30,887 nucleotides of DNA from Candidatus Thorarchaeota archaeon (GCA_011364905.1 RDNZ01000033.1:1-30887), one strand, 5' to 3'. Shown: positions 1 through 18,853, numbered from the stretch's first letter. The notes: generated from the sequence alone by a model not told the origin. Translations and numbers: made by a program.

Positions 1-686
1 GATTCAACAAGTGGCGCATCTGGGTCTGCTTTTGGCATACCTAGAGTTGAAACCTGTGCTAGGTCAGCAATCTCCATACTCACCTGGTCAATCATACCCG
101 CATGAAACACCTTGCTTTCGAAATCCATCCACTCTCCTTCTTGACCTGTTGCAGTGGCTGAGAGGGTATGAGTCAGTTGAGTTTCGCAATAGTCGAGAAT
201 AATGCTAGCGTCTTCCAAGGTTCTTGGACGCATACCCGTGACTAGACGAGAAACAGGAGCTTGTATTTCCGTACCGGGTCCTTGAACAAGCTCTGTCCTA
301 GGTCCGAACTCCTCAATTAGATGATCTATCAAATGTCTCGAGTGCGCTAGATGTGCTGAGCAACCCATATTGGCTGCTGTAAGTACAATTCTCGCTTGCT
401 GGTCTTTGATGTCCAGTCCACATGCCCCTTTCTTGTCACCCGAAAGGTCACATTTGCCCATTGTACAAAGACAACAGACCTGACAATAAGGCATGTATGA
501 AGGCTGGTATTTCGATAATAATTTGTAATCCCACGAACGGAGCGTTGTTGGACCAGGCATGGGGGTTGGACCCATAGGTTCATCCCATTCATCATCGACT
601 ATAGTACCGATGCGGACCTCAAGTCCTTTGAATCTACCAAGTCCAGTATCTGCTTCGTCCGCCTTGAAGTAAGCTTTCTTCTTCAT
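1..686 (-). CDS. cdhA: CO dehydrogenase/acetyl-CoA synthase complex alpha subunit (5' part; runs off the left edge)
   Basis: Manual translation from ATG at 686 stays open to position 1: MKKKAYFK...EPMGPTPMPGPTTLRSWDYKLL...YMPYCQVCCLCTMGKCDLSGDKKGACGLD...AHLAHSRHLIDHLIEEFG...TGQEG...FESKVFHAGMID. These are typical archaeal CdhA N-terminal motifs. The ORF track misses it because there is no stop in the window. Confidence 0.95.
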   Translation of the reverse strand, partial: MKKKAYFKADEADTGLGRFKGLEVRIGTIVDDEWDEPMGPTPMPGPTTLRSWDYKLLSKYQPSYMPYCQVCCLCTMGKCDLSGDKKGACGLDIKDQQARIVLTAANMGCSAHLAHSRHLIDHLIEEFGPRTELVQGPGTEIQAPVSRLVTGMRPRTLEDASIILDYCETQLTHTLSATATGQEGEWMDFESKVFHAGMIDQVSMEIADLAQVSTLGMPKADPDAPLVE

Positions 687-864
687 GCTACGTTCAGTTC
701 CTGTGGGTGGTAAAAAGCCCGAACACATTGCTGCATAATAAGGTTACGAATCATCCACTAAACTATGTTAATATGTACACAACGAAAAGCTAAGCCTATA
801 AACTACTTTGTTTAGGAAAAGAAAACACATCTTTTCTTTTGCTTTCAATTCGTAAGTGAACCGA

Positions 865-1662
865 CTAATTGTTCGTTTCAGCCACAAGACGACTCTTAAT
901 CTCGCGGATAGCCCTCATTCCTTTTGACTCAGGGTCAAGATCGATTGGAGCAACTCCTTTCCGATCCGCTTGCTTTATTGTGTCATCGAGTGGGACGATT
1001 CCTAACAATGGAATGTCCTCTTTCTTGACCCAAGTACGGATCATCTCTTCATCATCAGAGGATGCTGCTTTGTTGCCTATAGCATAGACTCGTCCAACAT
1101 CTATGTCCTGAGCAAGGGTCCTGATTTTTGCGAGTATGTCAAGAGATCGACGACCTGGTTCAGCTACAACTAGTAGTGCGTCCATCCCCCTTGTCGTCCC
1201 ACGTCCAAGATTCTCAATACCTGCATCCATATCCATCACAAAGGCTTCATCAGACCCAAGCACTAGATAACGCATGAGTGTCTTGAGAAGTGTTGCAGAT
1301 GGGCACATGCATCCTGAACCTCCAATCTCAACAGTGCCTGCGACTAGAAGCTTCACATTATCCGGGCCCTCAATGGCGAATTTTTCTGAAAGGTCATCCA
1401 CCCGGGGATTCAGCTTGAAAAAGCCACTGTAGCCTTTTGCTCCCTCAATCTGTAGTCGTTCCTCAACAAGAGTTTCATTCTGTGTCAATGGAACTATTTT
1501 CTTAGCCACATCCGCTGGAATTCCGAGTGCTGACCAAAGCGTATAACTCGGGTCTGCATCAACTGCTAGAATCTTGAGGCCATCTCTGCCGAGTAGCCTT
1601 GCTAAGGTTCCAGCAATAGTCGTTTTTCCAACTCCTCCTTTTCCTGCAACAGCAACCTTCAT
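865..1662 (-). CDS. cooC: CODH nickel-insertion ATPase, CooC/AcsF family
   Basis: Deviant Walker A GKGGVGKT, DADP, GCMCP (CxC Ni site), DMDAGIENLGRG; adjacent to cdhA. Confidence 0.92.
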   Translation of the reverse strand: MKVAVAGKGGVGKTTIAGTLARLLGRDGLKILAVDADPSYTLWSALGIPADVAKKIVPLTQNETLVEERLQIEGAKGYSGFFKLNPRVDDLSEKFAIEGPDNVKLLVAGTVEIGGSGCMCPSATLLKTLMRYLVLGSDEAFVMDMDAGIENLGRGTTRGMDALLVVAEPGRRSLDILAKIRTLAQDIDVGRVYAIGNKAASSDDEEMIRTWVKKEDIPLLGIVPLDDTIKQADRKGVAPIDLDPESKGMRAIREIKSRLVAETNN

Positions 1663-1683
1663 TTTCCTAGCGCCTCACTACGA

Positions 1684-2862
1684 TTACTTCTTGCGGACCA
1701 ACTCAGTCAGTTTCCGTATGGTTTGACTGATTGTGGCATCTTCTTTACTTGCCTTCCACTTCTTGAATTCCATTTCATTCATGTCCACTCTTGTCATTGT
1801 CCCTGTTCCCGCAACAATAGTGTCTGCTGTGTGGATCGAAACTGCAGCCCGTTTATCGGTCAGTCCTCCGGGCGGTCCAACATAGACAATATGAGACTTT
1901 GCAAGTGTCTTTGCGGCAGGACCTGGTAGATGCGCTAAAGCATCATCAGCGACGATGAGAGCTGTATCAAATTCTCCCGAAGATATTCTCTGAAGTGAAT
2001 GCACACCTGATACGGCCTTTTCTACTCCCATGGTATTTGATTGCACAAACATCGGAAGGGCATATGCTTCTTTTCCGTTATTTCTTTGAACCTCGACAAG
2101 TTTTGCGATTTTCGTTAGATTCGTTTCTTGATTTCCGGAGTTAATCACTCCACTTCCATAGAATATAACAGTACAATCTGCTTTCCGGAACCCATTTACA
2201 AACCCAACTAGTTCGCTACCAGGAATTCCTAGAACTTTGTCCTTTATTGAGGACTTCTCCTCGAGCTCCGATATTATCACATCAAGCAGGTCTGCGTCTT
2301 TTCCGCCAGGTATAACGAGTCTGTGGTTTGCCATCTTCATAGTTTCAGTCTGGCGGACGTCAACCACACCAATTGTGCGACTCTCAATTCCCTCAGGTAT
2401 TTTTTCCCCCCGTGGAAGTACAGCGAATCTACTAGGGTGTCGATGCAGACTCTCAGATGGGTCGGATCCCCAGTAAATAATGAAGTCACCATTGTTCCTG
2501 ACATATTCAAGGTCTATGCCAAGTCCTGAGGCATTGATGTCGTGCTCCATGACTTGTGTGGCACCTAAATCAATACTTGACGCCATGTATCCATTGAGGA
2601 GCGATGATAGTTCAATCCCTTCTTTGATGGCTTCGTTTGTTGCATGAGTCCATCCATAAACAAGTATGTTCTCACCAGTTGTCAAAATATCTGCGGCTTT
2701 CTCAAAGTCCTTCTCTGCTTGTTTCGTCTTTTGTAGTGCAGCTTTCTCCAGATGGGTATGACCTAGTGTACATAATCCCAGTGAATTGACGGTCTTTCCT
2801 GAAACTTCTGCGGCCACATCATCGCATAACAAGGAACATCCATTACAGACAATACTCTCCAC
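1684..2862 (-). CDS. FwdB/FmdB-like protein (formylmethanofuran dehydrogenase subunit B homologue) lacking catalytic/pterin residues
   Basis: N-terminal CNGCSLLCDD...LCTLG [4Fe-4S] motif, YGW, YWGSDP..HRH.SRF, VVDVRQTET, FYGSG, AHLP and GTMTRVD are collinear with FwdB. Likely start is GTG at 2862, after a GGTGG SD and the upstream stop, rather than 2913. Confidence 0.85.
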   Translation of the reverse strand: MESIVCNGCSLLCDDVAAEVSGKTVNSLGLCTLGHTHLEKAALQKTKQAEKDFEKAADILTTGENILVYGWTHATNEAIKEGIELSSLLNGYMASSIDLGATQVMEHDINASGLGIDLEYVRNNGDFIIYWGSDPSESLHRHPSRFAVLPRGEKIPEGIESRTIGVVDVRQTETMKMANHRLVIPGGKDADLLDVIISELEEKSSIKDKVLGIPGSELVGFVNGFRKADCTVIFYGSGVINSGNQETNLTKIAKLVEVQRNNGKEAYALPMFVQSNTMGVEKAVSGVHSLQRISSGEFDTALIVADDALAHLPGPAAKTLAKSHIVYVGPPGGLTDKRAAVSIHTADTIVAGTGTMTRVDMNEMEFKKWKASKEDATISQTIRKLTELVRKK

Positions 2863-2872
2863 TCTGAGCCAC

Positions 2873-3331
2873 CTACCAGATCTCAATAGCGTCAGTACAG
2901 CAATACTGTTCACAAACTCGGCAGTTCAGCCTGTCAGGAGGGAACCTGCGGCATCTCTCGAGATTAATTATCTTGGAAACTCCGTTTTCCACTCTAAAAA
3001 CTGTATTCGTACTCATAGCTGCTTTCCCTTGACTTGTGGGCGGCTCTGCAGCAACATCTACAGGACACACGACAACACAGTTGTTGCAACCGGTGCATTT
3101 ACTCTCATCAAGTTTGATTCCGGTGGCCTCAGCTGAGAGCATTGGAGCAACCATTTCTCTGAGTTTTTCTAGGTTCTTTTCGAAACCCGCTTCCAAAAGA
3201 GGAGGACATTCGTCGGGTGAGATATCACCCAATGCGAGTTTCGTAGCAAAGGCCATGCATGTTTTTGGTTCACAAAGTCGGCAGTTTGTCTTTGGTAGCA
3301 GGTTGTAGAGTTCCATTGGATTGAGTTTCAC
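2873..3331 (-). CDS. FeS-domain (PF04060-type, CdhE/AcsC/RnfB N-terminus-like) fused to an FwdG-like 2x[4Fe-4S] ferredoxin
   Basis: LLPKTNCRLCEPKTCMAFATKL...ECPPL followed by CTGCNNCVVVCPV...SQGK...VENGV...CRR...NCRVCEQYCCTDAI. Confidence 0.8.
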   Translation of the reverse strand: MKLNPMELYNLLPKTNCRLCEPKTCMAFATKLALGDISPDECPPLLEAGFEKNLEKLREMVAPMLSAEATGIKLDESKCTGCNNCVVVCPVDVAAEPPTSQGKAAMSTNTVFRVENGVSKIINLERCRRFPPDRLNCRVCEQYCCTDAIEIW

Positions 3332-3377
3332 TGTTTTGTCTCCGTCATAGCTAGATCATTGTTTCTAGGTAGAGCAT

Positions 3378-3425
3378 CAAGATGTATTTCGGTATATAGC
3401 ACAAGATATTTCCGGTATGACACAA
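3378..3425. repeat. Imperfect tandem duplication in the divergent promoter region between the fwdG-like gene and hdrA-mvhD
   Basis: CAAGATGTATTTCGGTATATAGCA (3378-3401) followed directly by CAAGATATTTCCGGTATGACA-CAA (3402-3425). Confidence 0.45.
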
Positions 3426-3486
3426 AACGTAACAAGTTGGATTATACAGCTTTCCTTATGGAACGCTTAACAGTACGGTGTAGCTT

Positions 3487-5919
3487 GTGAGCCATAGCAA
3501 AAAAACAAAGAAAAAGAACAGCAAAGGAGACAAACTAGCTGTCTTCCTATGCCGCTGTGGGTCGAATATTGCAGATACCATAGATATTGATGCACTGAGG
3601 AGCAAATACGAATCTGAAGGCATCCCTCTTGTTGATGTAGATGATCATCTCTGTTCAGACCAGGGTGTAAGTGATCTAGTAGAGAAGGTCAAAAAGAGTA
3701 AGGCGAAACAAGTTGTCATCGCTGGATGCTCACCTCTTCTACACAGGGAACTGTTCTCAGATGCAGCGAAGGAGGCTGGGATTAATCCAGGTCATCTTCA
3801 CATGGCAAACATTCGCGAGCAGTGCAGTTGGGTTCACTATGATGATCCGGAAGCTGCCACGAAGAAGGCTGCTGCAATCATCGATACTGAAATTGCTAAG
3901 GTACGCGGGTCGAATCCAATCCCAACTAATAGCCTCCCAATAACGCAGCGAGTCATGGTAGTTGGTGGAGGGGTCGCAGGAATAACGAGCGCATTAGAGC
4001 TTGCTGATGCGGGAATTGAAACAGTTATCGTTGAAAGAGAAGGATTTCTAGGCGGCCACATGGCAAAGTGGGACAAGCTTTTCCCAACGTTCGATTGTAG
4101 CATTTGTATTCTTGGACCGTTGATGACAAGACTATCTCGTCATGATAATATTCGAATAATGACCTTGGCAGAGGTGACTGATGTCATAGGTAATGTGGGA
4201 CACTATCGAGTAACAGTCAAACAAAGACCGCGCTATGTGGATATTGAATCATGTACGGGCTGCAACAGGTGCATTGAGGTTTGCCCTGTTGAGGTAGCTG
4301 ATGAATACAATAGTGGACTAGGAGACCGAAGAGCCATGGTGCGTCCCACTGTTGATGCAGTTCCAATAGCGCCATATATTGATCCAGATACTTGTATCGG
4401 TTGCCAATCATGTGCCGGAGTATGCGAACCAAAGTCCTTGAGATTTGATGATGCAGAAAAGACCGAGATAATTGACGTAGGCGCTGTTATACTTGCAACC
4501 GGTTTCAAGCCATTCAATCCCACGATAGTCGAAGAGTTTGGTTATGGTAGAATTCCGGACGTGATTACTTCCCTGGAGCTGGAACGGCTAATCAACCCGG
4601 GAGGACCAAGCGGCGGCAAACTTGTCCGCCCCTCAAACGGTAAGCGTCCACGAAACATAGTCTTTGTATCATGTGTTGGAAGTAGATCTCACAGATTCAA
4701 CCGGCCATACTGCAGTAGGGTTTGCTGTACAGCTGCTGTGAAAGAGGTGATACAGGTTAAACAACAGCTGCCTGACTGCAACGCATACGTGTTCTATACA
4801 GATATACGCACATTTGGCAAAGGACAAGAGGAGCTATATGTCCGCGCTGCAGATGAGTACAAAATCAACTTCATCAGAGGGACAATTGGAGAGGTCGTTC
4901 AGGACCCTGTTACTGAAAAAGTCACAATTAGGGCAGAGGATACACTTTTGCATCGCCTGCTTGAGTTTGAGGCAGATATGGTCGTTCTCATGGTTGGTAT
5001 GGATGCGGAACCAAGTAATGCAGCCCTCTCTCGATTGTTCAAGACCCCATTGGATGAGAATGGATTCTTTCTTGAGCTACATCCGAAATTGGGTCCAAGC
5101 AGAACTCACTCCAAGGGAGTGTTTCTTGCTGGTGTCTCTCAAGGACCAAAAGATATCGCAGACACTGTTGCGCATGCAGGCCTGGCCGCCTCCAAGGTGA
5201 AAACCCTTCTTGCATCCGGTGAAATCATCACGGACATTTGCGCTCCTTCTCTTGATGAGGAGCTTTGTATCAGTTGCAGACTATGTGAACGAGTATGCAA
5301 TCCAAAGGCAATAAAATTCAATGATCTTCACTATCCCGAGGTCGATCCAGCCGCTTGCCGCGGCTGCGGTGCCTGTGCTGCTGCCTGTCCCTCTGAGGCA
5401 CTCGACTTGCCATGCTTGACTAATGAGCAACTTGAGAGTGCAACAAAAGCAGCAGTTGAATTCAACCCCTTGAAACCAGCTATCGTTGGATACCTCTGTC
5501 GATGGTGTGCCTATAGCGCAGCTGACAGGGCCGGTACAGCCCGCATGAGATATCCTCCAAATGTCATCCCAATCCAAGTACCTTGCACTGGCCGCCTCAA
5601 TGTCGATGCATTACTCACAGCTTTTGAGGCTGGTGCTGATGGTGTTGTAGTTATGGGTTGCCATGTCCAAGACTGTCACTATAGATCTGGTGCACGTTAT
5701 GCAAAAGAGAGAACTGACAACATGCGCGAAATACTCAAGGCCGCTGGAATCGACCAACGCAGATTGTATTTTGGCAGCGCGTCCGCGTCCGAAGCAGACA
5801 GTTTTGCCGAACAAATAACTCGGTTTGTGAATGATATAGTCAAGCTCGGCCCACTGGGAACTGAGACTCCAAAGAACTTGATTGGAAAACAAAGTGCTGA
5901 GGAAGTGACTGGAGGGTGA
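3487..5919 (+). CDS. hdrA: Heterodisulfide reductase subunit A fused to a C-terminal MvhD (HdrA-MvhD)
   Basis: VFLCRCGSNI, GCSP, NIREQCSWVH, VVGGGVAG (FAD), FPTFDCSIC, ferredoxin insert, LELER, CVGSR...YCSRVCC, GPKDI and C-terminal ferredoxin; then the MvhD domain YLCRWCAYSAAD...VPCTGR...GADGV...GCHVQDCHY. Confidence 0.95.
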   Translation: MSHSKKTKKKNSKGDKLAVFLCRCGSNIADTIDIDALRSKYESEGIPLVDVDDHLCSDQGVSDLVEKVKKSKAKQVVIAGCSPLLHRELFSDAAKEAGINPGHLHMANIREQCSWVHYDDPEAATKKAAAIIDTEIAKVRGSNPIPTNSLPITQRVMVVGGGVAGITSALELADAGIETVIVEREGFLGGHMAKWDKLFPTFDCSICILGPLMTRLSRHDNIRIMTLAEVTDVIGNVGHYRVTVKQRPRYVDIESCTGCNRCIEVCPVEVADEYNSGLGDRRAMVRPTVDAVPIAPYIDPDTCIGCQSCAGVCEPKSLRFDDAEKTEIIDVGAVILATGFKPFNPTIVEEFGYGRIPDVITSLELERLINPGGPSGGKLVRPSNGKRPRNIVFVSCVGSRSHRFNRPYCSRVCCTAAVKEVIQVKQQLPDCNAYVFYTDIRTFGKGQEELYVRAADEYKINFIRGTIGEVVQDPVTEKVTIRAEDTLLHRLLEFEADMVVLMVGMDAEPSNAALSRLFKTPLDENGFFLELHPKLGPSRTHSKGVFLAGVSQGPKDIADTVAHAGLAASKVKTLLASGEIITDICAPSLDEELCISCRLCERVCNPKAIKFNDLHYPEVDPAACRGCGACAAACPSEALDLPCLTNEQLESATKAAVEFNPLKPAIVGYLCRWCAYSAADRAGTARMRYPPNVIPIQVPCTGRLNVDALLTAFEAGADGVVVMGCHVQDCHYRSGARYAKERTDNMREILKAAGIDQRRLYFGSASASEADSFAEQITRFVNDIVKLGPLGTETPKNLIGKQSAEEVTGG

Positions 5920-5923
5920 AGCA

Positions 5924-7279
5924 ATGGACAAGCCGGGAGTTGTGATTGGGGAGAAGCCAGTTGTGTCCATGGACGTTGTTGATGACAAGATTCGCTTGAC
6001 TTGGAAGACTTCTCTTCTCAAAAGAACTCTTGACCACGAGATTTCCAAATGTGTCGGCTGCAGTCTCTGTCTACCTTGTCCATGGGATGCTATCACCCTA
6101 GGACCTGTTCAGGAAACTGCTTCAGGTAGAATCGAAGGAGCTCCCTTGGTCAATGTGGACCCTGATGCTTGCACATTCTGCGGGCTTTGCGACTCTTCGT
6201 GTATTTTTGGGGCCTTCGACGCCAAGTATGAAGGTGAAGGAGCAGTCAATGAGTTTGTCAGAATTTCGGGAACTCACGAGATTGATGAAGAGAAATGTGC
6301 TCCATGCTTGCTGTGTGCCAAGGTTTGTCCAACTGACTCTCTGTCGGTGGAGGTCAAGGTGGACCACAAGAAGGATCTTGTCACATACGAGGGTGAGGAA
6401 CTTGCAGAGGGTACTATCAAGATAGACGAGGACAAATGCTCGTATTGTGGTCTATGTGAACTCCTATGCCCGGAAGTTATCAAGATTTTTTGGTCTGACG
6501 ATAAGCCCAAGCCCCCTGACTTTAGGCCTGCAGTTGGAATCAGAGCCGATTTGGACTATTGTGACTACTGTGGACTGTGCCAAGATATTTGCCCAGATGA
6601 TGCAATTGAAGTCAACTGCACTGAGTCAAGCGCTCGAGAGATAAAGCAGCCAACAATTTCTGGAAAACTCACGCATAATGATGAGACATGTGTCAAATGT
6701 GGATTATGCGCAACTGTATGTCCTTATGAGGCTCTTAAGGTAGAGAAACCCTTTACTGGAGAAGTCAAGACTCCGCGACTAGAGAAGTGCGATCCCACAG
6801 GATGTAATAACTGCTTCAACATCTGTCCAGTTGATGCTATCTATCCAACAGGAACCGCCGACAAGATTGATGTTCTTGATCACTGTGTCTACTGTGGTGC
6901 CTGCGAGCACTCATGCCCATATGATGTACTGGATGTGCAACGAGAAGGTTACATACTGGATGAGCTTGAGTGTGAGCGAGAATGGGAGAGAGCACGCAGA
7001 CTCTTCTTTGATGCTGTAGTGGGCAAAGATGCACCACCTAGCGGACTCTTTGAACGGGAGATATCTGTTGAGCCTATTGAGAGGATTCAAGCGAAAGCCT
7101 CCGCTATAGAAGGCTGGGACTCCGAGGATGGTCAGCGACTCACCGCTATGATGTCCGCTAAACAACTTAGAAACCTAATGAAGAAAAACCCTCAACTTCA
7201 CCTTCAATTTGAGCGAGGCAACACAGCCAAGGTTGTTAAGAAAATCAAGGACTCTCAAAAAGAGCATCAAGAGGAGTGA
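5924..7279 (+). CDS. fwdF: FwdF/FmdF-like polyferredoxin (8 ferredoxin-type Cys motifs) with a C-terminal extension
   Basis: Eight CxxCxxC...C-type motifs; CPWDAITLGPV as in the FwdF N-terminus; starts 4 nt after the hdrA stop with a GGAGGGTGA SD. Confidence 0.8.
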   Translation: MDKPGVVIGEKPVVSMDVVDDKIRLTWKTSLLKRTLDHEISKCVGCSLCLPCPWDAITLGPVQETASGRIEGAPLVNVDPDACTFCGLCDSSCIFGAFDAKYEGEGAVNEFVRISGTHEIDEEKCAPCLLCAKVCPTDSLSVEVKVDHKKDLVTYEGEELAEGTIKIDEDKCSYCGLCELLCPEVIKIFWSDDKPKPPDFRPAVGIRADLDYCDYCGLCQDICPDDAIEVNCTESSAREIKQPTISGKLTHNDETCVKCGLCATVCPYEALKVEKPFTGEVKTPRLEKCDPTGCNNCFNICPVDAIYPTGTADKIDVLDHCVYCGACEHSCPYDVLDVQREGYILDELECEREWERARRLFFDAVVGKDAPPSGLFEREISVEPIERIQAKASAIEGWDSEDGQRLTAMMSAKQLRNLMKKNPQLHLQFERGNTAKVVKKIKDSQKEHQEE

Positions 7280-7643
7280 TTTCATCACTACTTCTAGTGA
7301 CTGTCACTGAAATTCCATGTAGTTGGGGTGGAGATTCGTCTTTTGGGATCTCGATGAGAGCTAATGCCCATGGGCCATAGGGTATGACTGCAATTCCCTC
7401 TGCAACTTTTTCATCACCATAGGCAGCAAGCACGATCTCACCAATCTTTGATTTGACACTTGCATGGCCGCCATCTTTGAGACCTAACCTTTGTTGATCT
7501 CCCTTGCTTAGTCGCACTCTTGCTGCACTCTCAGAAAACTCCTTTGAGAGTATATCTTTGGCAGCTTCCACATCAGCCTCAAATGAATGCGCAACTACTA
7601 GTTTTAGCTCCACATTTGGGAATAGAAAGTCACCTAGTGCCAT
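7245..7643 (-). CDS. FwdD/FmdD-like molybdopterin-dinucleotide-binding-fold protein, degenerate
   Basis: SKEFSESAA..LSKGDQQRLGLKDG..VKSKIGEIVL...EGIAVIPYGPWA...GISVTV matches FwdD. Likely start is ATG 7643. The 3' end overlaps fwdF convergently by 35 nt. Confidence 0.78.
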   Translation of the reverse strand: MALGDFLFPNVELKLVVAHSFEADVEAAKDILSKEFSESAARVRLSKGDQQRLGLKDGGHASVKSKIGEIVLAAYGDEKVAEGIAVIPYGPWALALIEIPKDESPPQLHGISVTVTRSSDEITPLDALFESP

Positions 7644-7776
7644 GGCATTGACGTCCAGAGGAATTCGTGATTTATGCGCCATATTATGTTTCTGCTATCG
7701 CCCTTTTCTTTTGGGCCGCAATCAGCACCCTTTTTTAACATTGGCACCTCAGAGAGATAATTTATTGGTGGTTTCC

Positions 7777-8559
7777 TTGCGAATTGGCACTATATACGGC
7801 GACGTGTTCGCAGAACGAGTCATTGGAAATCTAATCAATTTCAAGTCTTTCTGCGAAGGTTGTGAGCCAGTGTGTGCCGAGTGTAGGAGTAGCTACGGTT
7901 CTTTCGTTGGGGATGTCGTTGGAATTCACCCCACTGATCCTCCCTCGCCCACAATGATTGAAGACCCTGAAGAGCTCATCAAGAATCTGAACCTAACGCC
8001 CTGTGACCTTCTTCTCATCGTTGCCATACATCATGACATATTGGCAGCAGTCGACTTACTTGTTGAAGCCACTGGTGCCAGAGCCGTTCTTGTGCCAATA
8101 GAGGATCCGACATGGGTTCCTCCTGGCTTACGAGCACAGGTCAAAGAAACTTTGGACAAACTAGGTATTGAATCCGCATTTCCCAAGCCCTTCTGTACAC
8201 TTGAGCCTGGAGAAGGGAAATTGATTGACGAATTCATGAAGACTTACAAGATTGGAAAGCCAATTCATTACGCAGACATGAATGGCGATGTGATAGCTGA
8301 AATAGGACCTGTGAGATCTGCGCCATGTGGTTGCACATGGTATGTCAGTCAGAAAATCAGGGGCAAGTCAATCAGTGATACGGATGCCTTATTTGATGAG
8401 ATTGCCAAGGCACATCACTCATACCCATGTACTGCATCCATGGCGAAAGACCGAGAATACGGAGATGCCCTTCTTCATGTCGCAGGATATAATGCCAGAT
8501 ATGCTGTCTGTGATGCTGTCGGCTTGAAGGAATGCAAGATGTCCACTGAGAAAGAATAA
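7777..8559 (+). CDS. DUF166 family protein (Cys-rich, probable metal/Fe-S binding)
   Basis: FAERVIGNL, FCEGCEPVCAECR, IEDPEELI, HHDI, FPKPFCTL, RSAPCGCTWYV, HHSYPCTASM, LHVAG. Real start probably TTG 7777 (GGTGG SD) or GTG 7768, not 7504. Confidence 0.8.
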   Translation: MRIGTIYGDVFAERVIGNLINFKSFCEGCEPVCAECRSSYGSFVGDVVGIHPTDPPSPTMIEDPEELIKNLNLTPCDLLLIVAIHHDILAAVDLLVEATGARAVLVPIEDPTWVPPGLRAQVKETLDKLGIESAFPKPFCTLEPGEGKLIDEFMKTYKIGKPIHYADMNGDVIAEIGPVRSAPCGCTWYVSQKIRGKSISDTDALFDEIAKAHHSYPCTASMAKDREYGDALLHVAGYNARYAVCDAVGLKECKMSTEKE

Positions 8560-8562
8560 CAG

Positions 8563-9213
8563 GTGAAAAAATTGCCAGACGAGATTTTGGATTATTGGAT
8601 GATGGTTTCGAAAGACCTTGCTGTCAGATTCAACATTGAGCTTTTCGACACAAGCTCTGCCATGTGGAGTTGGGACAACTTCTCTAAGGATATTCAGTCT
8701 CTGAGAGGCCGGCTAGGAATAGGGAAAACCCATGTCGAGGTTCTTGGGATGAAACTTGATTTTGAAACTGGTGAGGCTTACGATATTCTTTTGGATAAAC
8801 CAGTGCACAATAGTCGTCTGATACCATACTTGTTCTATTATAGCAAGGCAAAGGACAAGGGGATAGGCGGAGAGTGGATCAAGTTCAACTCCCTTCGCGG
8901 GTCTTGGGCATGTAGATATTCATTTGATGAAGAGGATGTGAGCAAACTAATCTCGGTCTTCAACGAGAAACGCGATGGAATGTTCGCAGCCATCGAGAAG
9001 TTGGGTGGAACGCGAGTTGACTTTGGAAACGCCGCATTTGAAGTATCATTTCTTCCAAATGTAAAGGTGCTCTTGATATTCGAGGAGGCTGATGAGGAAT
9101 TTCCAGCGGATGCTAGGTTACTTTATGACTCAAACTCCATCTTCTACCTGCCTCACGAATATCTGGGGACTATAAGTTGGTTTCTCGCAGAACGGGTTAT
9201 GAAGACGACCTGA
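8563..9213 (+). CDS. DUF3786 family protein
   Basis: GEWIKFNSLRG, FLPNVKVLLIFEEADEEFPADARLLYDSN...YLPHE; 3 nt downstream of the DUF166 stop. Confidence 0.78.
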   Translation: MKKLPDEILDYWMMVSKDLAVRFNIELFDTSSAMWSWDNFSKDIQSLRGRLGIGKTHVEVLGMKLDFETGEAYDILLDKPVHNSRLIPYLFYYSKAKDKGIGGEWIKFNSLRGSWACRYSFDEEDVSKLISVFNEKRDGMFAAIEKLGGTRVDFGNAAFEVSFLPNVKVLLIFEEADEEFPADARLLYDSNSIFYLPHEYLGTISWFLAERVMKTT

Positions 9214-9406: not shown

Positions 9407-10465
9407 GTGACTGAAAAAGTTTTGAAGACCGTTTGTGCTGGAGTAGGTTTTGTCGGTGGTGCAGCTCACGTTCCATCATTCCGTAAGGTACCCAACTCTC
9501 AATTATATGGTCTGTTGGCCAGGAAGGGTAGGGACAGTGAGAAATATGCTCTGAAATTAAAGGAAAAGATGGCGAGAAAAGACAATTTCGATCTCAAAAT
9601 CTACTATGATTGGAGTGAAGTATGCAAAGACCCTGAAGTTGATGCAGTATGTGTAGCTACACCTACACCGTTTCACTATCCAATGGGCAAAGAAGCCCTT
9701 GAGGGTGGCAAGCATGTCTACTTGGAGATGCCAATAGCTCCAAAACTCAAGGATGCTGAGGAACTAGGAGAAATTGCAAAGAAGAAGGGAGTGGTACTCA
9801 TGCCTATCCTGAACTTCAGGCGTTGTCCAGGTTACCTAAAGGCTAAGGAGCTCGTTGATAGTGGGGCGATTGGAAAACCGATTGCAATAACATTTAGAGA
9901 GTTTATTGCTGCGGAGGATCTAGCATCTCAGTGGCCTTTGAGTGGATGGGCTTGGAATATTGAGAAAGCTGGAGGGTATCCAGACTATACGTTATCTGTA
10001 TGGAGTCTTGATATGCTTCAATGGTTCTTTGATAGTCCTCTTGAAAATGTTGAGTGGACTGCAAACTATATGCCAATTGAGGGCATTGATGATTTCAAAG
10101 GCTACCAAACTGTAGGCATAATGAAGTTCGCAAATGGCTTAGTTGGTACAACAATGCTTGGCTCATCTGTAGCAAAGGGTTTGGATCTAAGTAGGTTTGA
10201 GATTTTTGGAAACAATGGCAAAACCATTCTTGTCGATTGGATTCCAAGCAAGAACCGTGAGGTCTTTGATGTGACTCTGTTTGGGAAGGATGGCGATGAT
10301 AAGAATTGGCAAGTTGAGGGACCCGGCCCCAAGATTTGGGGACACAAACAGATGATCGCCCACTTCGTTCAAGCATGTCTCGGAAATGAGAAACCCATCT
10401 GTGACTACAAATCTGCAATTGCAGCACAGAAGTGGTCAGACAAGATTGTAACCGATCTTATGTAA
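9407..10465 (+). CDS. Gfo/Idh/MocA family NAD(P)-dependent oxidoreductase
   Basis: GVGFVGGAAH Rossmann start, DAVCVATPTPFH, GKHVYLEMP, LNFRR. Start GTG 9407 follows a GGTGAGG SD. Confidence 0.85.
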   Translation: MTEKVLKTVCAGVGFVGGAAHVPSFRKVPNSQLYGLLARKGRDSEKYALKLKEKMARKDNFDLKIYYDWSEVCKDPEVDAVCVATPTPFHYPMGKEALEGGKHVYLEMPIAPKLKDAEELGEIAKKKGVVLMPILNFRRCPGYLKAKELVDSGAIGKPIAITFREFIAAEDLASQWPLSGWAWNIEKAGGYPDYTLSVWSLDMLQWFFDSPLENVEWTANYMPIEGIDDFKGYQTVGIMKFANGLVGTTMLGSSVAKGLDLSRFEIFGNNGKTILVDWIPSKNREVFDVTLFGKDGDDKNWQVEGPGPKIWGHKQMIAHFVQACLGNEKPICDYKSAIAAQKWSDKIVTDLM

Positions 10466-10482
10466 GAGATACATTGAAAGTG

Positions 10483-10513
10483 AAAGGGGGTTCTCCCCCT
10501 TTACCTCTTTTTT
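10483..10513 (+). terminator. Hairpin plus T-rich tract, probable terminator between convergent genes
   Basis: AAAGGGGG-TTCT-CCCCCTTT (8-bp stem, 10483-10502) followed by ACCTCTTTTTT. Confidence 0.55.
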
Positions 10514-10576
10514 CATCATTTACCGGTCTACGTTCTAGATGTAGATTTGCTGCTGCGATAATCATTGTTGGCGACT

Positions 10577-11017
10577 TCAATGATTGTGTCCATGTCCTGC
10601 ATCTTCATCCTCAGGCAAGAAGAATGTGAAGAGCTTGACATATTCTATTCCTTTCAGTCCGGACACTGTATTAGCGAATGCTTCAATCGACTTTCGGTTG
10701 CCCTTCAATGTGATCACTTCTAGGCAACGGTCATGTGTGGCATGAATGTGCACAGTAGAAACAACTTGAGCATGTTCTTCATGTTGAATTCTCATTAGGT
10801 CGGTCATTAACTTAGCCTTATGCTGGTAGACAATGTTCAAACTGGCCATTGTATTCCCATAATCCGCTTCAGATTCCCATTCAGCCTGCGAGAGGTACTC
10901 CCTCATGGCATCGCGGATTGCCTCGGATCTCCCTACGTATTTCCTCTTCTCTACTAATTTATCGAACTTCTCGAGTAGATCCTCAGGAACTGATACTCCG
11001 AATCTTTTGAGAGTCAT
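10577..11017 (-). CDS. nikR: Nickel-responsive transcriptional regulator NikR
   Basis: Ribbon-helix-helix start KRFGVSVPEDLL...RSEAIRDA; Ni site QH...HIH...CLE; His-rich tail GHGHNH. Start ATG 11017 with a GGTGA SD. Confidence 0.93.
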   Translation of the reverse strand: MTLKRFGVSVPEDLLEKFDKLVEKRKYVGRSEAIRDAMREYLSQAEWESEADYGNTMASLNIVYQHKAKLMTDLMRIQHEEHAQVVSTVHIHATHDRCLEVITLKGNRKSIEAFANTVSGLKGIEYVKLFTFFLPEDEDAGHGHNH

Positions 11018-11035
11018 GACACACATCACCATTAA

Positions 11036-11064
11036 TAGTAACACGATTATACTAAAAGTAACAC
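11036..11064. promoter_or_regulatory. Candidate NikR operator in the nikR / nikMNQ divergent promoter
   Basis: AGTAACAC direct repeat (11037-11044 and 11057-11064, 20-bp period) and TAGTA-N9-TACTA inverted repeat (11036-11054). Confidence 0.4.
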
Positions 11065-11113
11065 ACTTAAATGAATCTGAACAAAGTATGCTGTCGAACA
11101 GGAAGTAAGGAGT

Positions 11114-12880
11114 ATGCATGTCCCCGATGGAATAGTACCATTTTGGCTTCAGATCATGCTAATGGTAGTTAGTTCCTTGATGATGGTGACAGCGTATAGA
11201 AAGATCAAGAAGCGATTTGATGAGCGCTTGGTACCCTACATGGGTGTTTTGGCTGCAGTCATTTTCGCAGCCCAACTTGTGAACTTTCCTGTTCCTCCCT
11301 TCTCAAGTGGACACTTGGTAGGAGCTACTCTCCTAGCAGTGATGCTTGAGCCCTGGCCTGCAATGATGATAATGGCCCTTGTTCTGTTTGTCCAATCACT
11401 CTACGGCGATGGAGGGATTCTCACTTATGGGCTCAATCTCTTCAATATGGGAATATTCTCTGTATTCTTCGGATATGGAGTCGCTCTTCTCCTATTCAAG
11501 ACAACAAAACGCTTCATGACAAAAGAGAAATCGACATTGTTTTCCGCTGCGATAGCTTCTTTCATTGCTACAGTAACCGCTGCGTTTGTTCTAGGCCTTG
11601 AACTTTTCACTGTGCCTGGATTTAGCACACAGGCACTCCTGGCGATTACAGGAGTTCATGTTATCATCGGCTTCGGAGAAGCAATATTGACTACGATCAT
11701 TCTCCTTTATTTTATTAAAGCAAGTCCTCAGCTGGTTTCCTTTCTCCGCGACACAGATGAAGTCAGACATGAAACCGAAGACGAAACTGACGAAGTTTCC
11801 ACGAACCAGCGACAGTTGATAAAAGAGACTATTCCCATAGTTGTTGCGTCAATCATCATAACTGCTACAGTTGTTCTCTTTGGGCTTGCTTCAAGGAATC
11901 CTGATGGATTTGAATGGGCGCTTTTTGTTTTCGCTGGAATTGCAGAGCCTGAAAATGGATTCGAAGGCATTTTTGCTTCTCTGGGTCAAGGTCAGTTCCT
12001 GAATATCTTTTTGGGATCAATAGGAATTCTCATTGCTCTTGCTCTTGGAATTATGGTCTTTAGAAAAGCAACGCGAGACCACAGCCATAAACACACGGAC
12101 AAGTTCCTCTTGCCCTTCGGTGAAGGCAAGGGTTCTGGAAGCATCTTCTCATCAACAGGTATGCTGCTCTCTGCGGTTGCTCTTGCAGTGATAATAACAC
12201 TCCAGAATCAATTATCCGTTGTTCTCACGATTATTGGTGTTGTCCTAGTGGGTGGATGGTTTTCAGGAACTCGCTGGCGAAGAGTAATCGCCCTCGCAGC
12301 GAAGTTTGAGGTGTTAATTCTTTTCTGGATTTTCTTTGAACCATTCGTCTTTGGAAGTACCGTCGTACTAACAATATTCACACCTTGGGGACCTCTCAAT
12401 GTCTACTCAGAGGGCATATACCTTGGACTGCTTCTTGGTTCAAGGATGTTCGCTATCCTTCTTACGTTCCTCGCAACGCTATCACAGATGCATCTCTCGG
12501 AGTTCATTGGAGCGCTCCGGACACTAAGAATCCCCGCAACAATTCTTGGGTCTTTGCTCATCATGTTCAGGTATGTGCCTCTCTTCATGGAGGAACGCTC
12601 TAGAATGCATGATGCTCAGCTTCTACGAGGGTATAGCAATGGGAGACGATTTGAGAGAATCAGATCCATGGGGTACTTGGTCGGAACATCAATCGACCGA
12701 TCTTTTGATCGGAGTTCAACCGTCTATGAAGCCATGAGTCTTCGAGGGTTTGGAAAAGGAACATTGGTTTCTGGACGGGGTTTCAAGCGGTTTGATTTGC
12801 TTCTTCCGTTGATACTGCTTACCTTTGTTGCAATTCTTCCCTCTCTAGTTTCGTTTCTAATGGAGGTCTTAACACTATGA
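11114..12880 (+). CDS. ECF-type Ni/Co transporter: fused NikM/CbiM (S) + PDGLE/NikN + NikQ/CbiQ (T) components
   Basis: N-terminal MHVPDG, AQLVNFP, SGHLVG, GDGG and GEA (CbiM); ASRNPDGFEW (PDGLE domain); C-terminal FRYVPLFMEE...AQLLRG...AMSLRGF (T-component Arg motifs). One uninterrupted 588-aa frame. Confidence 0.88.
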   Translation: MHVPDGIVPFWLQIMLMVVSSLMMVTAYRKIKKRFDERLVPYMGVLAAVIFAAQLVNFPVPPFSSGHLVGATLLAVMLEPWPAMMIMALVLFVQSLYGDGGILTYGLNLFNMGIFSVFFGYGVALLLFKTTKRFMTKEKSTLFSAAIASFIATVTAAFVLGLELFTVPGFSTQALLAITGVHVIIGFGEAILTTIILLYFIKASPQLVSFLRDTDEVRHETEDETDEVSTNQRQLIKETIPIVVASIIITATVVLFGLASRNPDGFEWALFVFAGIAEPENGFEGIFASLGQGQFLNIFLGSIGILIALALGIMVFRKATRDHSHKHTDKFLLPFGEGKGSGSIFSSTGMLLSAVALAVIITLQNQLSVVLTIIGVVLVGGWFSGTRWRRVIALAAKFEVLILFWIFFEPFVFGSTVVLTIFTPWGPLNVYSEGIYLGLLLGSRMFAILLTFLATLSQMHLSEFIGALRTLRIPATILGSLLIMFRYVPLFMEERSRMHDAQLLRGYSNGRRFERIRSMGYLVGTSIDRSFDRSSTVYEAMSLRGFGKGTLVSGRGFKRFDLLLPLILLTFVAILPSLVSFLMEVLTL

Positions 12881-13635
12881 CCTGCGCAATTGATGTAAAT
12901 CATGTGTTTTTCAGATATGATGAGTTCAGGATGGAGGATATCACACTCCAGCTTCACGTGGGCCAGCAGAAAGCACTCGCTGGTTTAAATGGTTCCGGCA
13001 AGACAACCTTGTTCAAGTTACTTCTAGGCCTTCTTGAGCCAGAATCTGGAGAGATCTTCATTCTTGACAAGAAACTTACCAAGGACTCGCTTTGGGAGAT
13101 TAGGCAAGATGTTGGATTTCTCTTCCAGAATCCTGATGACCAACTCTTCGCACCTACTGTCTGGGAGGATGTCGCCTTTGGGCCTCGAAATCTCGGTCTG
13201 CCAAAAGAAGATATTGAAGATAGAGTTGAGTGGGCTCTCGATAGGGTTGGCATGTCCAGATTCTTGAACAGACCAGTGAATCAGCTGAGTCATGGTGAAG
13301 CCAAACGAGTTGCACTTGCAGGTATCATCGCGATGAGACCCAGCATACTGATTCTCGATGAGCCATTTTCAGGACTAGACTTCAAGATGGTCAAGAAAAT
13401 GATTAGTATCTTCCAGAAGTTGAGACAAGAGGGTGCTAGCATACTCTTCACTACTCACAATAGTTTCTTCATTAAAAACTGGTCTGACTCAGTCGCTGTG
13501 ATAAAAGAGGGTCGGATTGTGTATGATGGTCCTACTACTGAAGCCATGAGAAGCCGTGCCGTCACCGAGAACGTTGGTGATTGGGGACAGCTTCAGAAAG
13601 AGATGTTGTATAGCAGAAGGACACTTCTTGAATGA
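12877..13635 (+). CDS. ECF transporter ATPase (NikO/CbiO)
   Basis: GLNGSGKT, FQNPDDQLFAPTV, LSHGE, ILDEP, TH; ATGA overlap with the upstream gene. Confidence 0.92.
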   Translation: MTCAIDVNHVFFRYDEFRMEDITLQLHVGQQKALAGLNGSGKTTLFKLLLGLLEPESGEIFILDKKLTKDSLWEIRQDVGFLFQNPDDQLFAPTVWEDVAFGPRNLGLPKEDIEDRVEWALDRVGMSRFLNRPVNQLSHGEAKRVALAGIIAMRPSILILDEPFSGLDFKMVKKMISIFQKLRQEGASILFTTHNSFFIKNWSDSVAVIKEGRIVYDGPTTEAMRSRAVTENVGDWGQLQKEMLYSRRTLLE

Positions 13636-17047: not shown

Positions 17048-18853
17048 TCATTTTATGGGACGCATGACTTTTGACTGGGCAATCAGGGTTCGAATCCGCT
17101 TCTCTTTGTCTAGCAATGCTTCCTCGTGTTCTTGGAGGATTAGTAACGCTCCAATGTGATTTCCTGTATTGAGTGCCCGAACCAATGACATGATCGCCAG
17201 CATGACTTCATCTTGCGTGTTTACTGCAATCTCATCCATCATCTTAATAGTGTCGTTGATTGGCCCGCGTTTGTCCGGGTGATGAATGAAGCGTGTTTCA
17301 AACACTGTAAAGAGATCCTCGAATGCCTCCTTGAGCTCGTTTGCTTCTCTGAATCCCTCCGCGGATTTCGATAGCAAATCAATCGCTTTTTCAATCATAT
17401 CTGAAGAGTTTGTCAGAAGCGCTTCGCATCCTGCTGTGCGGACCCAAATTGTCGCTAGTTCCGGGACACCAAGTTCTTGATAATACTCAGCTGCATTCTC
17501 TGCTTTTTTGCTTGCCATTCTATGAAACGATTCATACCTCTCTGTTTCGCCAAGTTTCATAGCACATTCCGCAGCTTTGCCGTAGAGTTTGGACGCGCCT
17601 TCAGGGTCTTCTGATGTTGATGACTCCTCTGCAAGTTCAACATAAAGCTGTAGCGCATTCTCAAGATGCTTCCTAGCATCTGTTGCATTCCCCGATTCAT
17701 CTAGGACTTCAGCTGCCTCCTCAAGAGATAGAGCTTGCAGTTCTTTGTTAGTATCTTCTTGTTCCTTTGCGGCTTGTTGAAGATAATGGTCAATCACCTT
17801 TTTGTAAATCTCGTCTGCTTCATCGGTCTGTCCCCAATTCTTTAGACACATTGCTTGGAATCTAAGATATCTTTTCTCAGACTCGATATCATTCTGGGTC
17901 TTTGCCTTCTCTGCGAGTTCACCAAAAAGCTCGTTTGCTCTCTTGAAAGCCCACTTCGCTTTCATTGGTCGACCAATCTCATCGAACATATTGCCACCCT
18001 TCACAAGCAGCGGCGCAACTGCTTCAGCTGTACCCTGCATTTTGAGGTATGCCTCAGCAGCTTTCGACATGGCTTGTTTTCTGGCAGATGTCAATCTTTG
18101 CAGTTTGTATGCTTCTTGAGCTGCATCATAGATGTTGCCAGCTTTTTCATAAAGCTCTGCTGCCTCGTATAGATCACCTGCATCCATCATGATTCGCGTC
18201 GCCTCAGGAGACTCACCTTGCGTGTCCATTATTTGTGCTGCTTCTGCAAGGGCATTTCCGGCTGATAGGTAGTCTCCCTTCTGCTTAGCAATTTCTGCCC
18301 AACGTTTTGCTAGCTTTGCAGCGCGATCGTTGATACGCTCACCGAGTTCATCATCTCCTGCGGTATAGTATAGCCTGCTCACCTTTCTAAGAAGACTTAT
18401 CGCTTCCCCATAGTCCTCTTCTACTTCTTTTGTGTCGGCTAAGTTCTCAAGTGCATCAGCAGCTTTGGTGTTTAGTGCGCTTTTTTCATCATCCTTTTCA
18501 ATAAAATCCTGAGCTCGAAAATAGAAATCAGCTGCTTTCTTGTATTCTGTTGCTTCTTCAGCAACCCTCGCGGCAATCTTATTCAGTCGTACAATTTCTT
18601 GATAGATCTCAGGTCCCTGAGGCAGACGTATCAACATCAAGGTGGCACTTTCAAATGCTTTGAAGGCCTCAGATGCTTCATAGAGGTCTCGATACGCAAG
18701 CGCTGCTTCTTCATAGATTTTCGCAGCCTGTTCATACTCCATCTTTGTAGCTAGGCGGTTGGCATAGGCTAGAAGTAGCTTTGCTCCATGCTCCTTGTTG
18801 CCTTCACCTATTGCACTTCTGGCTTCCTTTAGAATATCATCATCAGATGTCAA
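17048..18853 (-). CDS. All-helical TPR/alpha-SNAP-like repeat protein (601 aa)
   Basis: Repeated helical hairpins (YEQAAKIYEEAALAY, YKKAADFYFRA, YEKAGNIYDAAQEAY, ASKLYGKAAECA); Ala/Glu/Lys-rich; no transmembrane or catalytic motif seen. Confidence 0.75.
   Translation of the reverse strand: MTSDDDILKEARSAIGEGNKEHGAKLLLAYANRLATKMEYEQAAKIYEEAALAYRDLYEASEAFKAFESATLMLIRLPQGPEIYQEIVRLNKIAARVAEEATEYKKAADFYFRAQDFIEKDDEKSALNTKAADALENLADTKEVEEDYGEAISLLRKVSRLYYTAGDDELGERINDRAAKLAKRWAEIAKQKGDYLSAGNALAEAAQIMDTQGESPEATRIMMDAGDLYEAAELYEKAGNIYDAAQEAYKLQRLTSARKQAMSKAAEAYLKMQGTAEAVAPLLVKGGNMFDEIGRPMKAKWAFKRANELFGELAEKAKTQNDIESEKRYLRFQAMCLKNWGQTDEADEIYKKVIDHYLQQAAKEQEDTNKELQALSLEEAAEVLDESGNATDARKHLENALQLYVELAEESSTSEDPEGASKLYGKAAECAMKLGETERYESFHRMASKKAENAAEYYQELGVPELATIWVRTAGCEALLTNSSDMIEKAIDLLSKSAEGFREANELKEAFEDLFTVFETRFIHHPDKRGPINDTIKMMDEIAVNTQDEVMLAIMSLVRALNTGNHIGALLILQEHEEALLDKEKRIRTLIAQSKVMRPIK

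Follow-up and report, generated by a model that had tools for sequence, protein, structure and literature searches.

The closest described relatives of the gene set analyzed here come from Methanosarcinales. In Methanosarcina acetivorans, the genes fwdG2B2D2 and hdrA-pfd have been named (PMC2838876), and HdrA2, which is an MvhD fusion, oxidizes F420H2 or ferredoxin together with HdrB2C2 and bifurcates electrons (PMC5296606). HdrA2 of this organism is induced on acetate, where CODH/ACS (the CO dehydrogenase/acetyl-CoA synthase) supplies reduced ferredoxin (PMC5296606). We found no paper treating the five Methanosarcinales genes as one complex. Here, we describe the corresponding five-gene module of a Candidatus Thorarchaeota (Asgard) genome, which was estimated to be 81% complete. 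In this genome, the module is embedded in the cdh genes of CODH/ACS, and its FwdB and FwdD paralogues (FwdB* and FwdD*, or B* and D*) have lost their catalytic residues; the remaining members are a FwdG-type protein (G*), a FwdF-type polyferredoxin (F*) and an HdrA-MvhD fusion. The DNA analyzed (the window) is one contig of 30,887 nucleotides, the proteins of which were identified by Pfam, NCBIfam and PDB sequence searches.

The Methanosarcinales genes are encoded together and specify the same five proteins as the window, including a FwdB2 that lacks the catalytic arginine and a polyferredoxin with eight clusters. In a Methanosarcinaceae metagenome-assembled genome (MAG, contig L108), the two gene halves are arranged divergently side by side as in the window, with polyferredoxin and HdrA-MvhD facing thioredoxin, a ferredoxin:thioredoxin reductase (FTR)-like gene, FeS-FwdG, FwdB2 and FwdD2. 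The degree of amino acid identity between the window and the Methanosarcinaceae proteins was 41% for HdrA, 38% for Pfd, 46% for G, 28% for B and 26% for D. In contrast to the window, Methanosarcinaceae FwdB2 keeps the catalytic cysteine (SSFCQG), which is an aspartate in the window, and the Methanosarcinaceae set is not located beside cdh. The thioredoxin and the FTR-like gene (PF02943), which lie at L108:7727-8442 between hdrA-mvhD and FeS-fwdG/fwdB2/fwdD2, hint at a protein disulfide as high-potential acceptor in the Methanosarcinaceae lineage.

Homologous HdrA, MvhD, FwdF/FmdF, FwdG, FwdB and FwdD subunits are found in the Hdr-Fmd/Fwd supercomplexes of methanogens (PDB 7BKB, 9SW6, 9SFI; PMC13580544, PMC13518236), and these complexes are the likely model for the assembly and the low-potential electron path of the window module. 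In contrast to them, the window locus involves no FwdA, FwdC, HdrB, HdrC, hydrogenase or Fdh, its B/D catalytic site is dead, its G protein carries an extra CdhE-type FeS domain, HdrA and MvhD are fused, and the whole set is located inside cdh. The cultured Methanonezhaarchaeia strain YNP3N carries a 'Fwd-Hdr' cluster consisting of FwdBD, FwdF, FwdG and HdrABC (Kohtz et al. 2025, PMC12700198), which resembles the window as a second FwdBD set with HdrA, FwdF and FwdG, apart from canonical FwdABCD. However, the YNP3N cluster includes HdrBC and formate oxidation by its FwdBD has been proposed, whereas the window lacks HdrBC and no longer has the residues of the formate/CO2 site.

A precedent for a cofactor-less subunit of the MopB family in an Hdr bifurcating complex is ElpA, a truncated FdhA, in the Elp-Hdr complex of Methanothermobacter marburgensis (PMC12350162; 8RVU/8RVY), and the HdrA and MvhD-related chains of this complex are the best PDB matches of the window HdrA-MvhD. 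ElpA is located on the electron-input arm and lacks a MopB domain, whereas the window encodes a full-length FwdB/D pair, which would be placed on the output arm. NuoG of complex I and FhcB of the formyltransferase/hydrolase complex are not known to contain pterin. Both proteins (7Z7R_G, 6S6Y) keep the MopB fold as structural/Fe-S subunits and were hit when the B* model was compared with known folds, but they belong to other complexes with other partners and their sequence similarity to B* is remote. The cdh operon of M. maripaludis encodes its own 2x[4Fe-4S] ferredoxin, and its accessory genes also include CooC2 and DUF166 (bioRxiv 10.1101/2024.03.05.583561). A dedicated Fe-S carrier and a DUF166 protein are encoded with cdh in the window, too, but the M. 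maripaludis carrier is a simple PorE/F-like ferredoxin and no HdrA, polyferredoxin or Fwd-derived subunits are involved. A 2026 study placed Asgard and Bathyarchaeal FmdF in an FmdF tree and did not discuss the gene context. Neither the Asgard arrangement nor the dead B/D pair is described in any paper that we found.

Loss of catalytic residues in FwdB* and FwdD*

An earlier sequence-only reading of the window had put forward a candidate new system, in which a pterin-less Fwd-derived electron conduit would couple HdrA-MvhD to CODH/ACS. The gene content it had named, from cdhA to DUF3786 with the FwdB, FwdG, FwdD and FwdF homologues and HdrA-MvhD in between, was found completely and at the expected place. 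The order across the island is DUF3786-DUF166-D*-F*-HdrA/MvhD <> G*-B*-cooC-cdhABCDE, and all reading frames of the named island genes (positions 3-9213) are open.

FwdB* (1684-2862, minus strand) starts with GTG at position 2862, 10 nt past the stop codon of G*. The protein scored 205.8 bits against TIGR03129, which is below the curated cut-off of 327.8, whereas the canonical FwdB of the same genome reached 518.5; its match to 5T5I_B had an E value of 1.6e-29. The four [4Fe-4S] cysteines are kept (CNGCSLLCDD...C, aligned to 5T5I_B), and this motif is nearly invariant in 137 sequences. At the active site, three HMMER alignments to solved FwdB and a pairwise alignment with the genome's own canonical FwdB indicated that SVCHG has become SIDLG and PMRGH has become PMFVQ, that is, the catalytic Cys, His and Arg are replaced by Asp, Leu and Phe. 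Among 127 Thor-clade sequences, the Cys position is always occupied by Asp, Glu, Asn, Ser or Gln and never by a hydrophobic residue. Phe, Tyr, Trp or Ala is found at the Arg position and Gln, Glu or His at the position of the second His, and both vary among close Thor relatives. These catalytic-site substitutions differ between the Thor subclades, and the Fe-S cysteines are invariant. A hidden selenocysteine was considered and rejected, since the Cys position aligns to Asp and the frame carries no internal stop.

For the comparison of the cofactor pocket, we used 68 columns that are conserved in 24 cofactor-type FwdB sequences (canonical FwdB and the FwdB2 clades keeping Cys-His). Forty of them are retained in at least 80% of the 127 Thor-clade sequences, including WGxxP..RH, VVDxR, FxGxG and RxD. 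The losses comprise the Cys/His pair, H150, the Gly-His following the Arg, a loop of about 10 residues bearing conserved G, P and D, and four C-terminal positions; H150, P374, G379 and E381 are replaced. In the sister family f12, nearly all conserved columns are retained and Glu-Tyr is found at the Cys-His site. The AF2 (AlphaFold2) model of FwdB* had a pLDDT (predicted local distance difference test) score of 96.4, and in Foldseek it matched 5T5I_B, 8RJA_B and 7BKB_H with TM (template modeling) scores of 0.87-0.89 and E values of about 1e-30. Thus, the FwdB fold is kept. The use of FhcB as yardstick for decay of the pterin pocket failed, since the degenerate high-GC representatives (e.g., P0192) turned out to resemble FwdB (259 bits) rather than FhcB (45 bits). 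These representatives (P0173, P0180, P0184, P0185, P0192) are of odd composition and fall into the canonical FwdB clade; they have lost Cys, His and Arg and keep the Fe-S motif. A degenerate group inside the canonical clade indicates that catalytic decay of FwdB happened more than once.

FwdD* (7245-7682, minus strand, with a possible alternative start at 7643) is convergent to F* and overlaps the 3' end of fwdF. It scored 49.7 bits against NF042908 and remained below the cut-off of 175, but the Molydop_binding barrel (PF01568) is still recognized with 36.6 bits and FwdD-2 (2KI8_A) was matched with an E value of 5.2e-9. Where the genome's own canonical FwdD has TSGRT..QG, GPYAN and MPKFKG, FwdD* reads VVAHS..AD, GPWAL and PPQLHG, so that the family motifs TGR..QG, GPWAN and MPxFKG are replaced. 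On sequence grounds, catalysis of the known FwdB reaction by FwdB*/FwdD* is excluded. The claimed loss of the Mo/W-pterin motifs stands as far as the catalytic residues are concerned, but with 40 of the 68 columns kept the attribute 'pterin-less' is unproven, and FwdB* may or may not have given up its cofactor.

The dN/dS (the ratio of non-synonymous to synonymous substitution rates) was calculated against L105 and L106, which are close relatives from metagenomes (dS 0.1-1.0). The values were 0.10-0.14 for FwdB* and 0.08-0.13 for FwdD*, 0.03-0.08 for HdrA-MvhD and F*, 0.02-0.03 for cooC and 0.01-0.02 for G*. These data indicate purifying selection on B* and D* and argue against neutral evolution. 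Pseudogenization of the two genes was rejected because intact reading frames were found in every locus and dN/dS was about 0.1. Over longer distances, B* and D* are the fastest-diverging members of the module. Within Thor, B* sequences share 46-75% identity versus 78-95% for G*, and in comparison with other phyla the identity of B is 28-35% versus 41-58% for HdrA and G. Taken together, B* and D* are functional and under relaxed but clear purifying constraint, as expected of a scaffold.

The Fe-S wire and its possible partners

The remaining module members retain their Fe-S ligands, and here the alignments agree with what the sequence-only reading had claimed. G* (2873-3331, minus strand, 152 aa) combines an FeS domain of the CdhE/RnfB type (PF04060) with a FwdG-type ferredoxin. 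Residues 2-52 match the N-terminus of the large subunit of the corrinoid iron-sulfur protein (CoFeSP; 4DJD_C, 3e-7) and residues 69-150, a 2x[4Fe-4S] ferredoxin, match FwdG (9SFI_U, 6.8e-9; 5T5I_G, 9.6e-7). Twelve cysteines, which account for three clusters, are invariant in 39 sequences from Asgard, Bathyarchaeia and Methanosarcinaceae. In blastp comparisons at several loci, the FeS domain and the CdhE N-terminus share about 45% identity; with the CdhE encoded on contig C80 of the same genome, the identity is 48% over 61 residues (tblastn). This similarity makes a function as exit towards the corrinoid protein plausible. F* (5924-7279, plus strand, 451 aa) contains 34 cysteines and eight [4Fe-4S] cluster motifs; it scored 221.7 bits, below the NF042909 cut-off of 375, and matched 5T5I_F with an E value of 6.5e-47. 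Apart from F* and G*, this incomplete genome yielded no FwdF/G-like gene.

HdrA-MvhD (3487-5919, plus strand, 810 aa) is a full-length fusion of the HdrA2 type. It reached 909.9 bits over positions 2-776 of the 777 positions of NF040770, below the curated cut-off of 1100. PF02662 (FlpD) was located at residues 666-788, the FAD (flavin adenine dinucleotide) and Fe-S motifs are present, and the four ferredoxin motifs, CSIC and the MvhD cysteines are intact. Its HdrA part matched HdrA of 8RVU (chain a, 5.6e-177) over the full length, and 8RVU_F, which is MvhD-related, was hit with 1.5e-35. A divergent intergenic region of 155 bp (3332-3486) separates the putative transcription units of G*-B*-cooC-cdh and hdrA-fwdF.

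FwdA, FwdC, a CCG domain (HdrB/D) and a [NiFe] hydrogenase large subunit gave no match on the window contig, in agreement with the absence of fwdA, fwdC, hdrB, hdrC and mvhAG noted in the sequence-only reading. Canonical fwdD-fwdB-fwdA genes are present on contig C27 (518 and 530 bits) and fwdC is located with ftr and mch on contig C11; FwdA and FwdC were found only there, and no F or G gene is present at these two loci. Elsewhere, the genome has many paralogues of HdrA, and some 20 of its genes encode a CCG domain. Mtd and a FrhB-like gene are present, too, and thus the genome uses F420, which makes F420H2 a plausible donor. A second full-length HdrA-MvhD paralogue (39% identical) lies at C16:33977-37672 and is followed by a CCG-domain (HdrB-like) gene; the pair is a candidate HdrA2B2C2-type operon or a candidate source of an HdrBC partner. 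An MvhD-like frame at C7:16329-16754 (minus strand) contains one in-frame TGA and may encode a selenocysteine-containing protein of the MvhD/VhuD type.

Linkage of the module to the CODH/ACS genes

The window begins with the 5' part of cdhA (3-728, minus strand), encoding the CODH/ACS alpha subunit (TIGR00314, 294 bits, model positions 8-223), which is cut by the contig end. It is preceded by cooC (865-1662, minus strand; PF01656 CbiA and related P-loop families), encoding the Ni-insertion ATPase of CODH. The remaining operon genes (cdhB' CDE, cooC2) are found on contig C80 and share 91-97% identity with the close relative L106. In close relatives, the whole island reads cbiMQ-nikR-GFO-DUF3786-DUF166-D*-F*-HdrA/MvhD <> G*-B*-cooC-cdhABCDE-cooC2, and G*, B* and cooC are spaced by 10-15 nt. 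The order cdhA-cooC-B*-G* <> HdrA-MvhD-F*-(D*) was found in 13/13 loci of the Thor family and in 7/7 loci of f12 that we examined. In all 20 loci, cooC lies between B* and cdhA and the layout is divergent; DUF166-DUF3786 follow next in most Thor loci. Adjacency of the module to cdhA recurs, in other gene orders, in f15 and f21, which are also Asgard families. Within f12, a 574-aa open reading frame (ORF) without Pfam match was observed at L083:13803-15527 between hdrA-mvhD and fwdF. At the corresponding position, a gap of about 1.5-3.3 kb is present in four further loci (L084, L085, L086, L088) and lacking in L082 and L087. A cofC gene (F420 biosynthesis) is located just past fwdD in L083.

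When we profiled 81 genomes of the family, which are not independent of one another, F* and CdhA were both present in 39, both missing in 36 and discordant in 6. Three discordant genomes have F* only (G222, G231, G210). Here, the locus stops at a contig end or at a 500-N gap where cdh would follow, and these assembly breaks led us to discount them as counter-examples. Two genomes with CdhA only are 62% and 81% complete, and one further genome has a divergent, partial CdhA. Eleven family genomes contain a canonical-type FwdB match but neither B*, F* nor CdhA, and SVCHG and PMRGH are intact in 8/8 of those checked. The existence of genomes with canonical FwdB and without F* indicates that the wire follows CODH/ACS and not formylmethanofuran dehydrogenase. 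Conserved co-occurrence in relatives, for which the sequence-only reading had suggested a check, was thus observed at the level of both gene order and gene content.

A search of 1.8 billion representatives yielded 507 relatives of B*. In a tree of 62 full-length relatives, B* falls into a non-canonical clade of 44 rows, none of which has the catalytic Arg. Some members of this clade keep Cys-His and some Cys only, and Baldrarchaeia, Bathyarchaeota and Methanosarcinaceae are represented among them. Contigs L107, L108, L109 and L110 carry the same set of five genes (FeS-FwdG, FwdB2, FwdD2, HdrA-MvhD, polyferredoxin). The set is split by a pst operon on a Bathyarchaeota contig, and one further contig carries the module with cooC. 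On the metagenome contig L110, the module lies on one strand and is followed by an HdrD-like Fer4+CCG protein, a FrhB-like gene, cooT and a CODH gene (7257-8555, 9539-12180); this contig is a candidate for a fuller version of the module with donor and acceptor subunits. With the same genes in Methanosarcinaceae, Bathyarchaeia and other archaea, and named already in M. acetivorans (PMC2838876, PMC5296606), the claim of a new system does not hold. The five-gene module is older than Asgard, and the Thor locus is a lineage variant with dead B/D and embedded in cdh.

On the far side of the module, the window encodes a DUF166 protein (7777-8559, plus strand; PF02593, 162.2 bits at a gathering cut-off of 24.4) and a DUF3786 protein (8563-9213, plus strand; PF12654, 85 bits). 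The DUF166 homologue of M. maripaludis is required for CODH/ACS-dependent autotrophy (bioRxiv 10.1101/2024.03.05.583561), and within the Thor family DUF166 is present only in genera with cdhA, even when DUF166 lies on another contig. In Asgard, Bathyarchaeia and other archaea, a CxxCx3CxxC motif (C26, C29, C33, C36) is invariant together with C140, C184, C218, H213, H214 and H234. The AF2 model of DUF166 reached a pLDDT of 90.8, but Foldseek gave no PDB match at E <= 1e-3, no PDB sequence was matched, and VIA-align returned only generic Rossmann-like matches (Z about 7) without functional lead. Searching PDB with the DUF3786 sequence gave nothing meaningful, and the clusters retrieved from the Atlas were all DUF3786 proteins of Bacillota.

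Downstream of the island, a GFO-type oxidoreductase is encoded together with a Ni/Co uptake set (10577-13635), in which nikR (minus strand) is followed by a cbiM/cbiQ fusion and an ABC ATPase (plus strand; PF08753 NikR_C, PF01891 CbiM, PF02361 CbiQ, PF00005). The set, the fusion gene of which encodes 588 aa, lies directly beside the CODH/ACS-Hdr island and is found at the same position in L105 and L106. We infer that it belongs to the island, and its likely function is to provide the island's Ni enzymes with nickel. The remainder of the window consists of housekeeping genes. A TPR (tetratricopeptide repeat)-rich protein of 601 aa (17048-18853, minus strand) showed weak sub-threshold matches to eukaryotic SNAP and to DOCK DHR-2 lobe A, which are probably repeat similarity only.

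Proposed electron supply to CODH/ACS and alternative explanations

The locus probably handles very low-potential electrons for carbon fixation. With moderate confidence, and judging from the sequences, we read the module as a soluble flavin-based bifurcating/confurcating unit of the HdrA2 type that would, as a dedicated source or sink, exchange electrons of about -500 mV with CODH/ACS. HdrA-MvhD would carry the bifurcating FAD. By homology with the solved Hdr-Fmd/Fwd complexes, the low-potential branch would run from HdrA-MvhD via the eight-cluster F* and the three-cluster G* to the [4Fe-4S] cluster of FwdB*, and FwdB*/FwdD* would constitute a non-catalytic Fe-S-bearing scaffold that does not reduce CO2. 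A disabled CO2 site requires another end point for the chain, either a partner or ferredoxin, and operon structure and inheritance suggest CODH/ACS as the likely partner. The module would thus be built into the ACDS (acetyl-CoA decarbonylase/synthase) island of Thorarchaeia, with G*-B*-cooC-cdhABCDE on one side and DUF166 on the other. Candidate uses are CO2/CO conversion at CdhA and reductive activation of the corrinoid protein or of the A-cluster. The two-electron donor would probably be F420H2, as for HdrA2 of M. acetivorans, or a partner reached via MvhD, and the high-potential acceptor would be encoded elsewhere. A more specific version, which we put forward only tentatively and regard as rather doubtful, is that the module docks on ACDS and that bifurcation (e.g., from F420H2) pushes electrons of about -500 mV or below into the clusters of CdhA or, via the CdhE-like domain of G*, to the corrinoid cobalt/A-cluster.

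An electron conduit to CODH/ACS, as proposed by the sequence-only reading, is the best available interpretation of synteny and co-inheritance, but several observations weigh against it. The link is genetic, and we infer both the complex and its contact with ACDS. Co-loss is weak evidence of function, since a single deletion removes the whole island. The Methanosarcinaceae MAG and the Bathyarchaeia loci carry the module with no cdh within 9 kb, and the Asgard family f9 has CdhA (35/40 genomes) without the Thor-type module; the link is thus neither universal nor obligatory. The FeS domain of G* is also present where cdh is not adjacent, and FwdB* may still bind a pterin. Finally, bifurcation is unproven for this locus, since neither HdrBC nor a donor subunit is encoded in the window.

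Some of these points would fit a generic HdrA2-type complex reducing or oxidizing ferredoxin, which has its HdrBC/HdrD-like partners elsewhere, exchanges electrons via the free ferredoxin pool, shares only regulation with the Wood-Ljungdahl genes and keeps B*D* as structural leftovers. HdrA2B2C2 uses free ferredoxin in vitro (PMC5296606), and the module is accompanied by HdrD in L110 and by HdrBC in YNP3N (PMC12700198). The ancestral module without nearby cdh in Methanosarcinaceae and Bathyarchaeia and the wealth of CCG-domain genes and HdrA paralogues in the genome point in the same direction. However, G* and B* form part of the putative cdh transcription unit, where the gaps measure about 10-20 nt, module and cdh co-occur within the family, and their adjacency recurs in several gene orders. 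We consider this explanation unlikely but worth keeping in mind. A live active site, in which B*D* use an oxygen ligand instead of Cys (Asp, Glu, Ser or Asn) to bind a W/Mo-bis-pterin and catalyze a reaction other than CO2 reduction, would account for the lack of hydrophobic residues at the Cys position and for the 40/68 retained columns with the dinucleotide-binding Gly/Asp motifs. It would also suit f12, which keeps nearly all columns, and the related FwdB2 clades, which keep Cys-His and lack only the Arg. Nevertheless, the putative ligand (D/E/N/S) and its neighbors vary among close relatives, the loop of about 10 residues is deleted, H150, P374, G379 and E381 have given way to other residues, D* no longer has the TGR..QG and GPWAN contacts, and evolution is far faster in B* and D* than in the Fe-S subunits. 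On balance, such an activity appears improbable.

We assign a similarly low probability to an ordinary Hdr-Fwd supercomplex for CO2 fixation, in which F* and G* wire HdrA to the canonical active FwdABCD and B*D* are a docking pair kept as a spare or for regulation. No FwdF/G-like genes besides F* and G* were found in the 81%-complete genome and the canonical fwd loci lack F and G, but the 11 family genomes with canonical-type FwdB (motifs intact in the 8 checked) do without F*, B* and CdhA. Where cdh and canonical fwd coexist, F* and G* may play a double role. Least probable of all, and in our view hardly tenable, is a function of the module in maturation or assembly of the CODH/ACS metal centers, together with CooC, DUF166 and the Ni uptake genes. 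It is true that B* is located directly upstream of cooC and that DUF166, NikR and CbiMQO flank the island. A chaperone function hardly accounts for a chain of at least 23 Fe-S clusters and an entire HdrA flavoprotein, however, and in other lineages the module is found away from cdh and cooC.

Non-methanogenic archaea using the Wood-Ljungdahl pathway, such as Asgard, need electrons of very low potential to reduce CO2 but lack the CoM/CoB (coenzyme M/coenzyme B) heterodisulfide cycle of the methanogens. If the module docks on ACDS and feeds electrons into it by bifurcation, it would correspond to the bacterial reductive activator RACo but work without ATP, and it would give non-methanogenic archaea a way of driving the conversion of CO2 to CO without CoM-S-S-CoB. 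The fwdG2B2D2 and hdrA-pfd genes of the tractable Methanosarcina belong to the same ancient module, and thus the hypothesis is testable in a cultured organism. A conserved bifurcating-type flavoprotein with an Fe-S wire in the acetyl-CoA synthase operon is therefore a concrete and testable candidate for the electron supply of these archaea.

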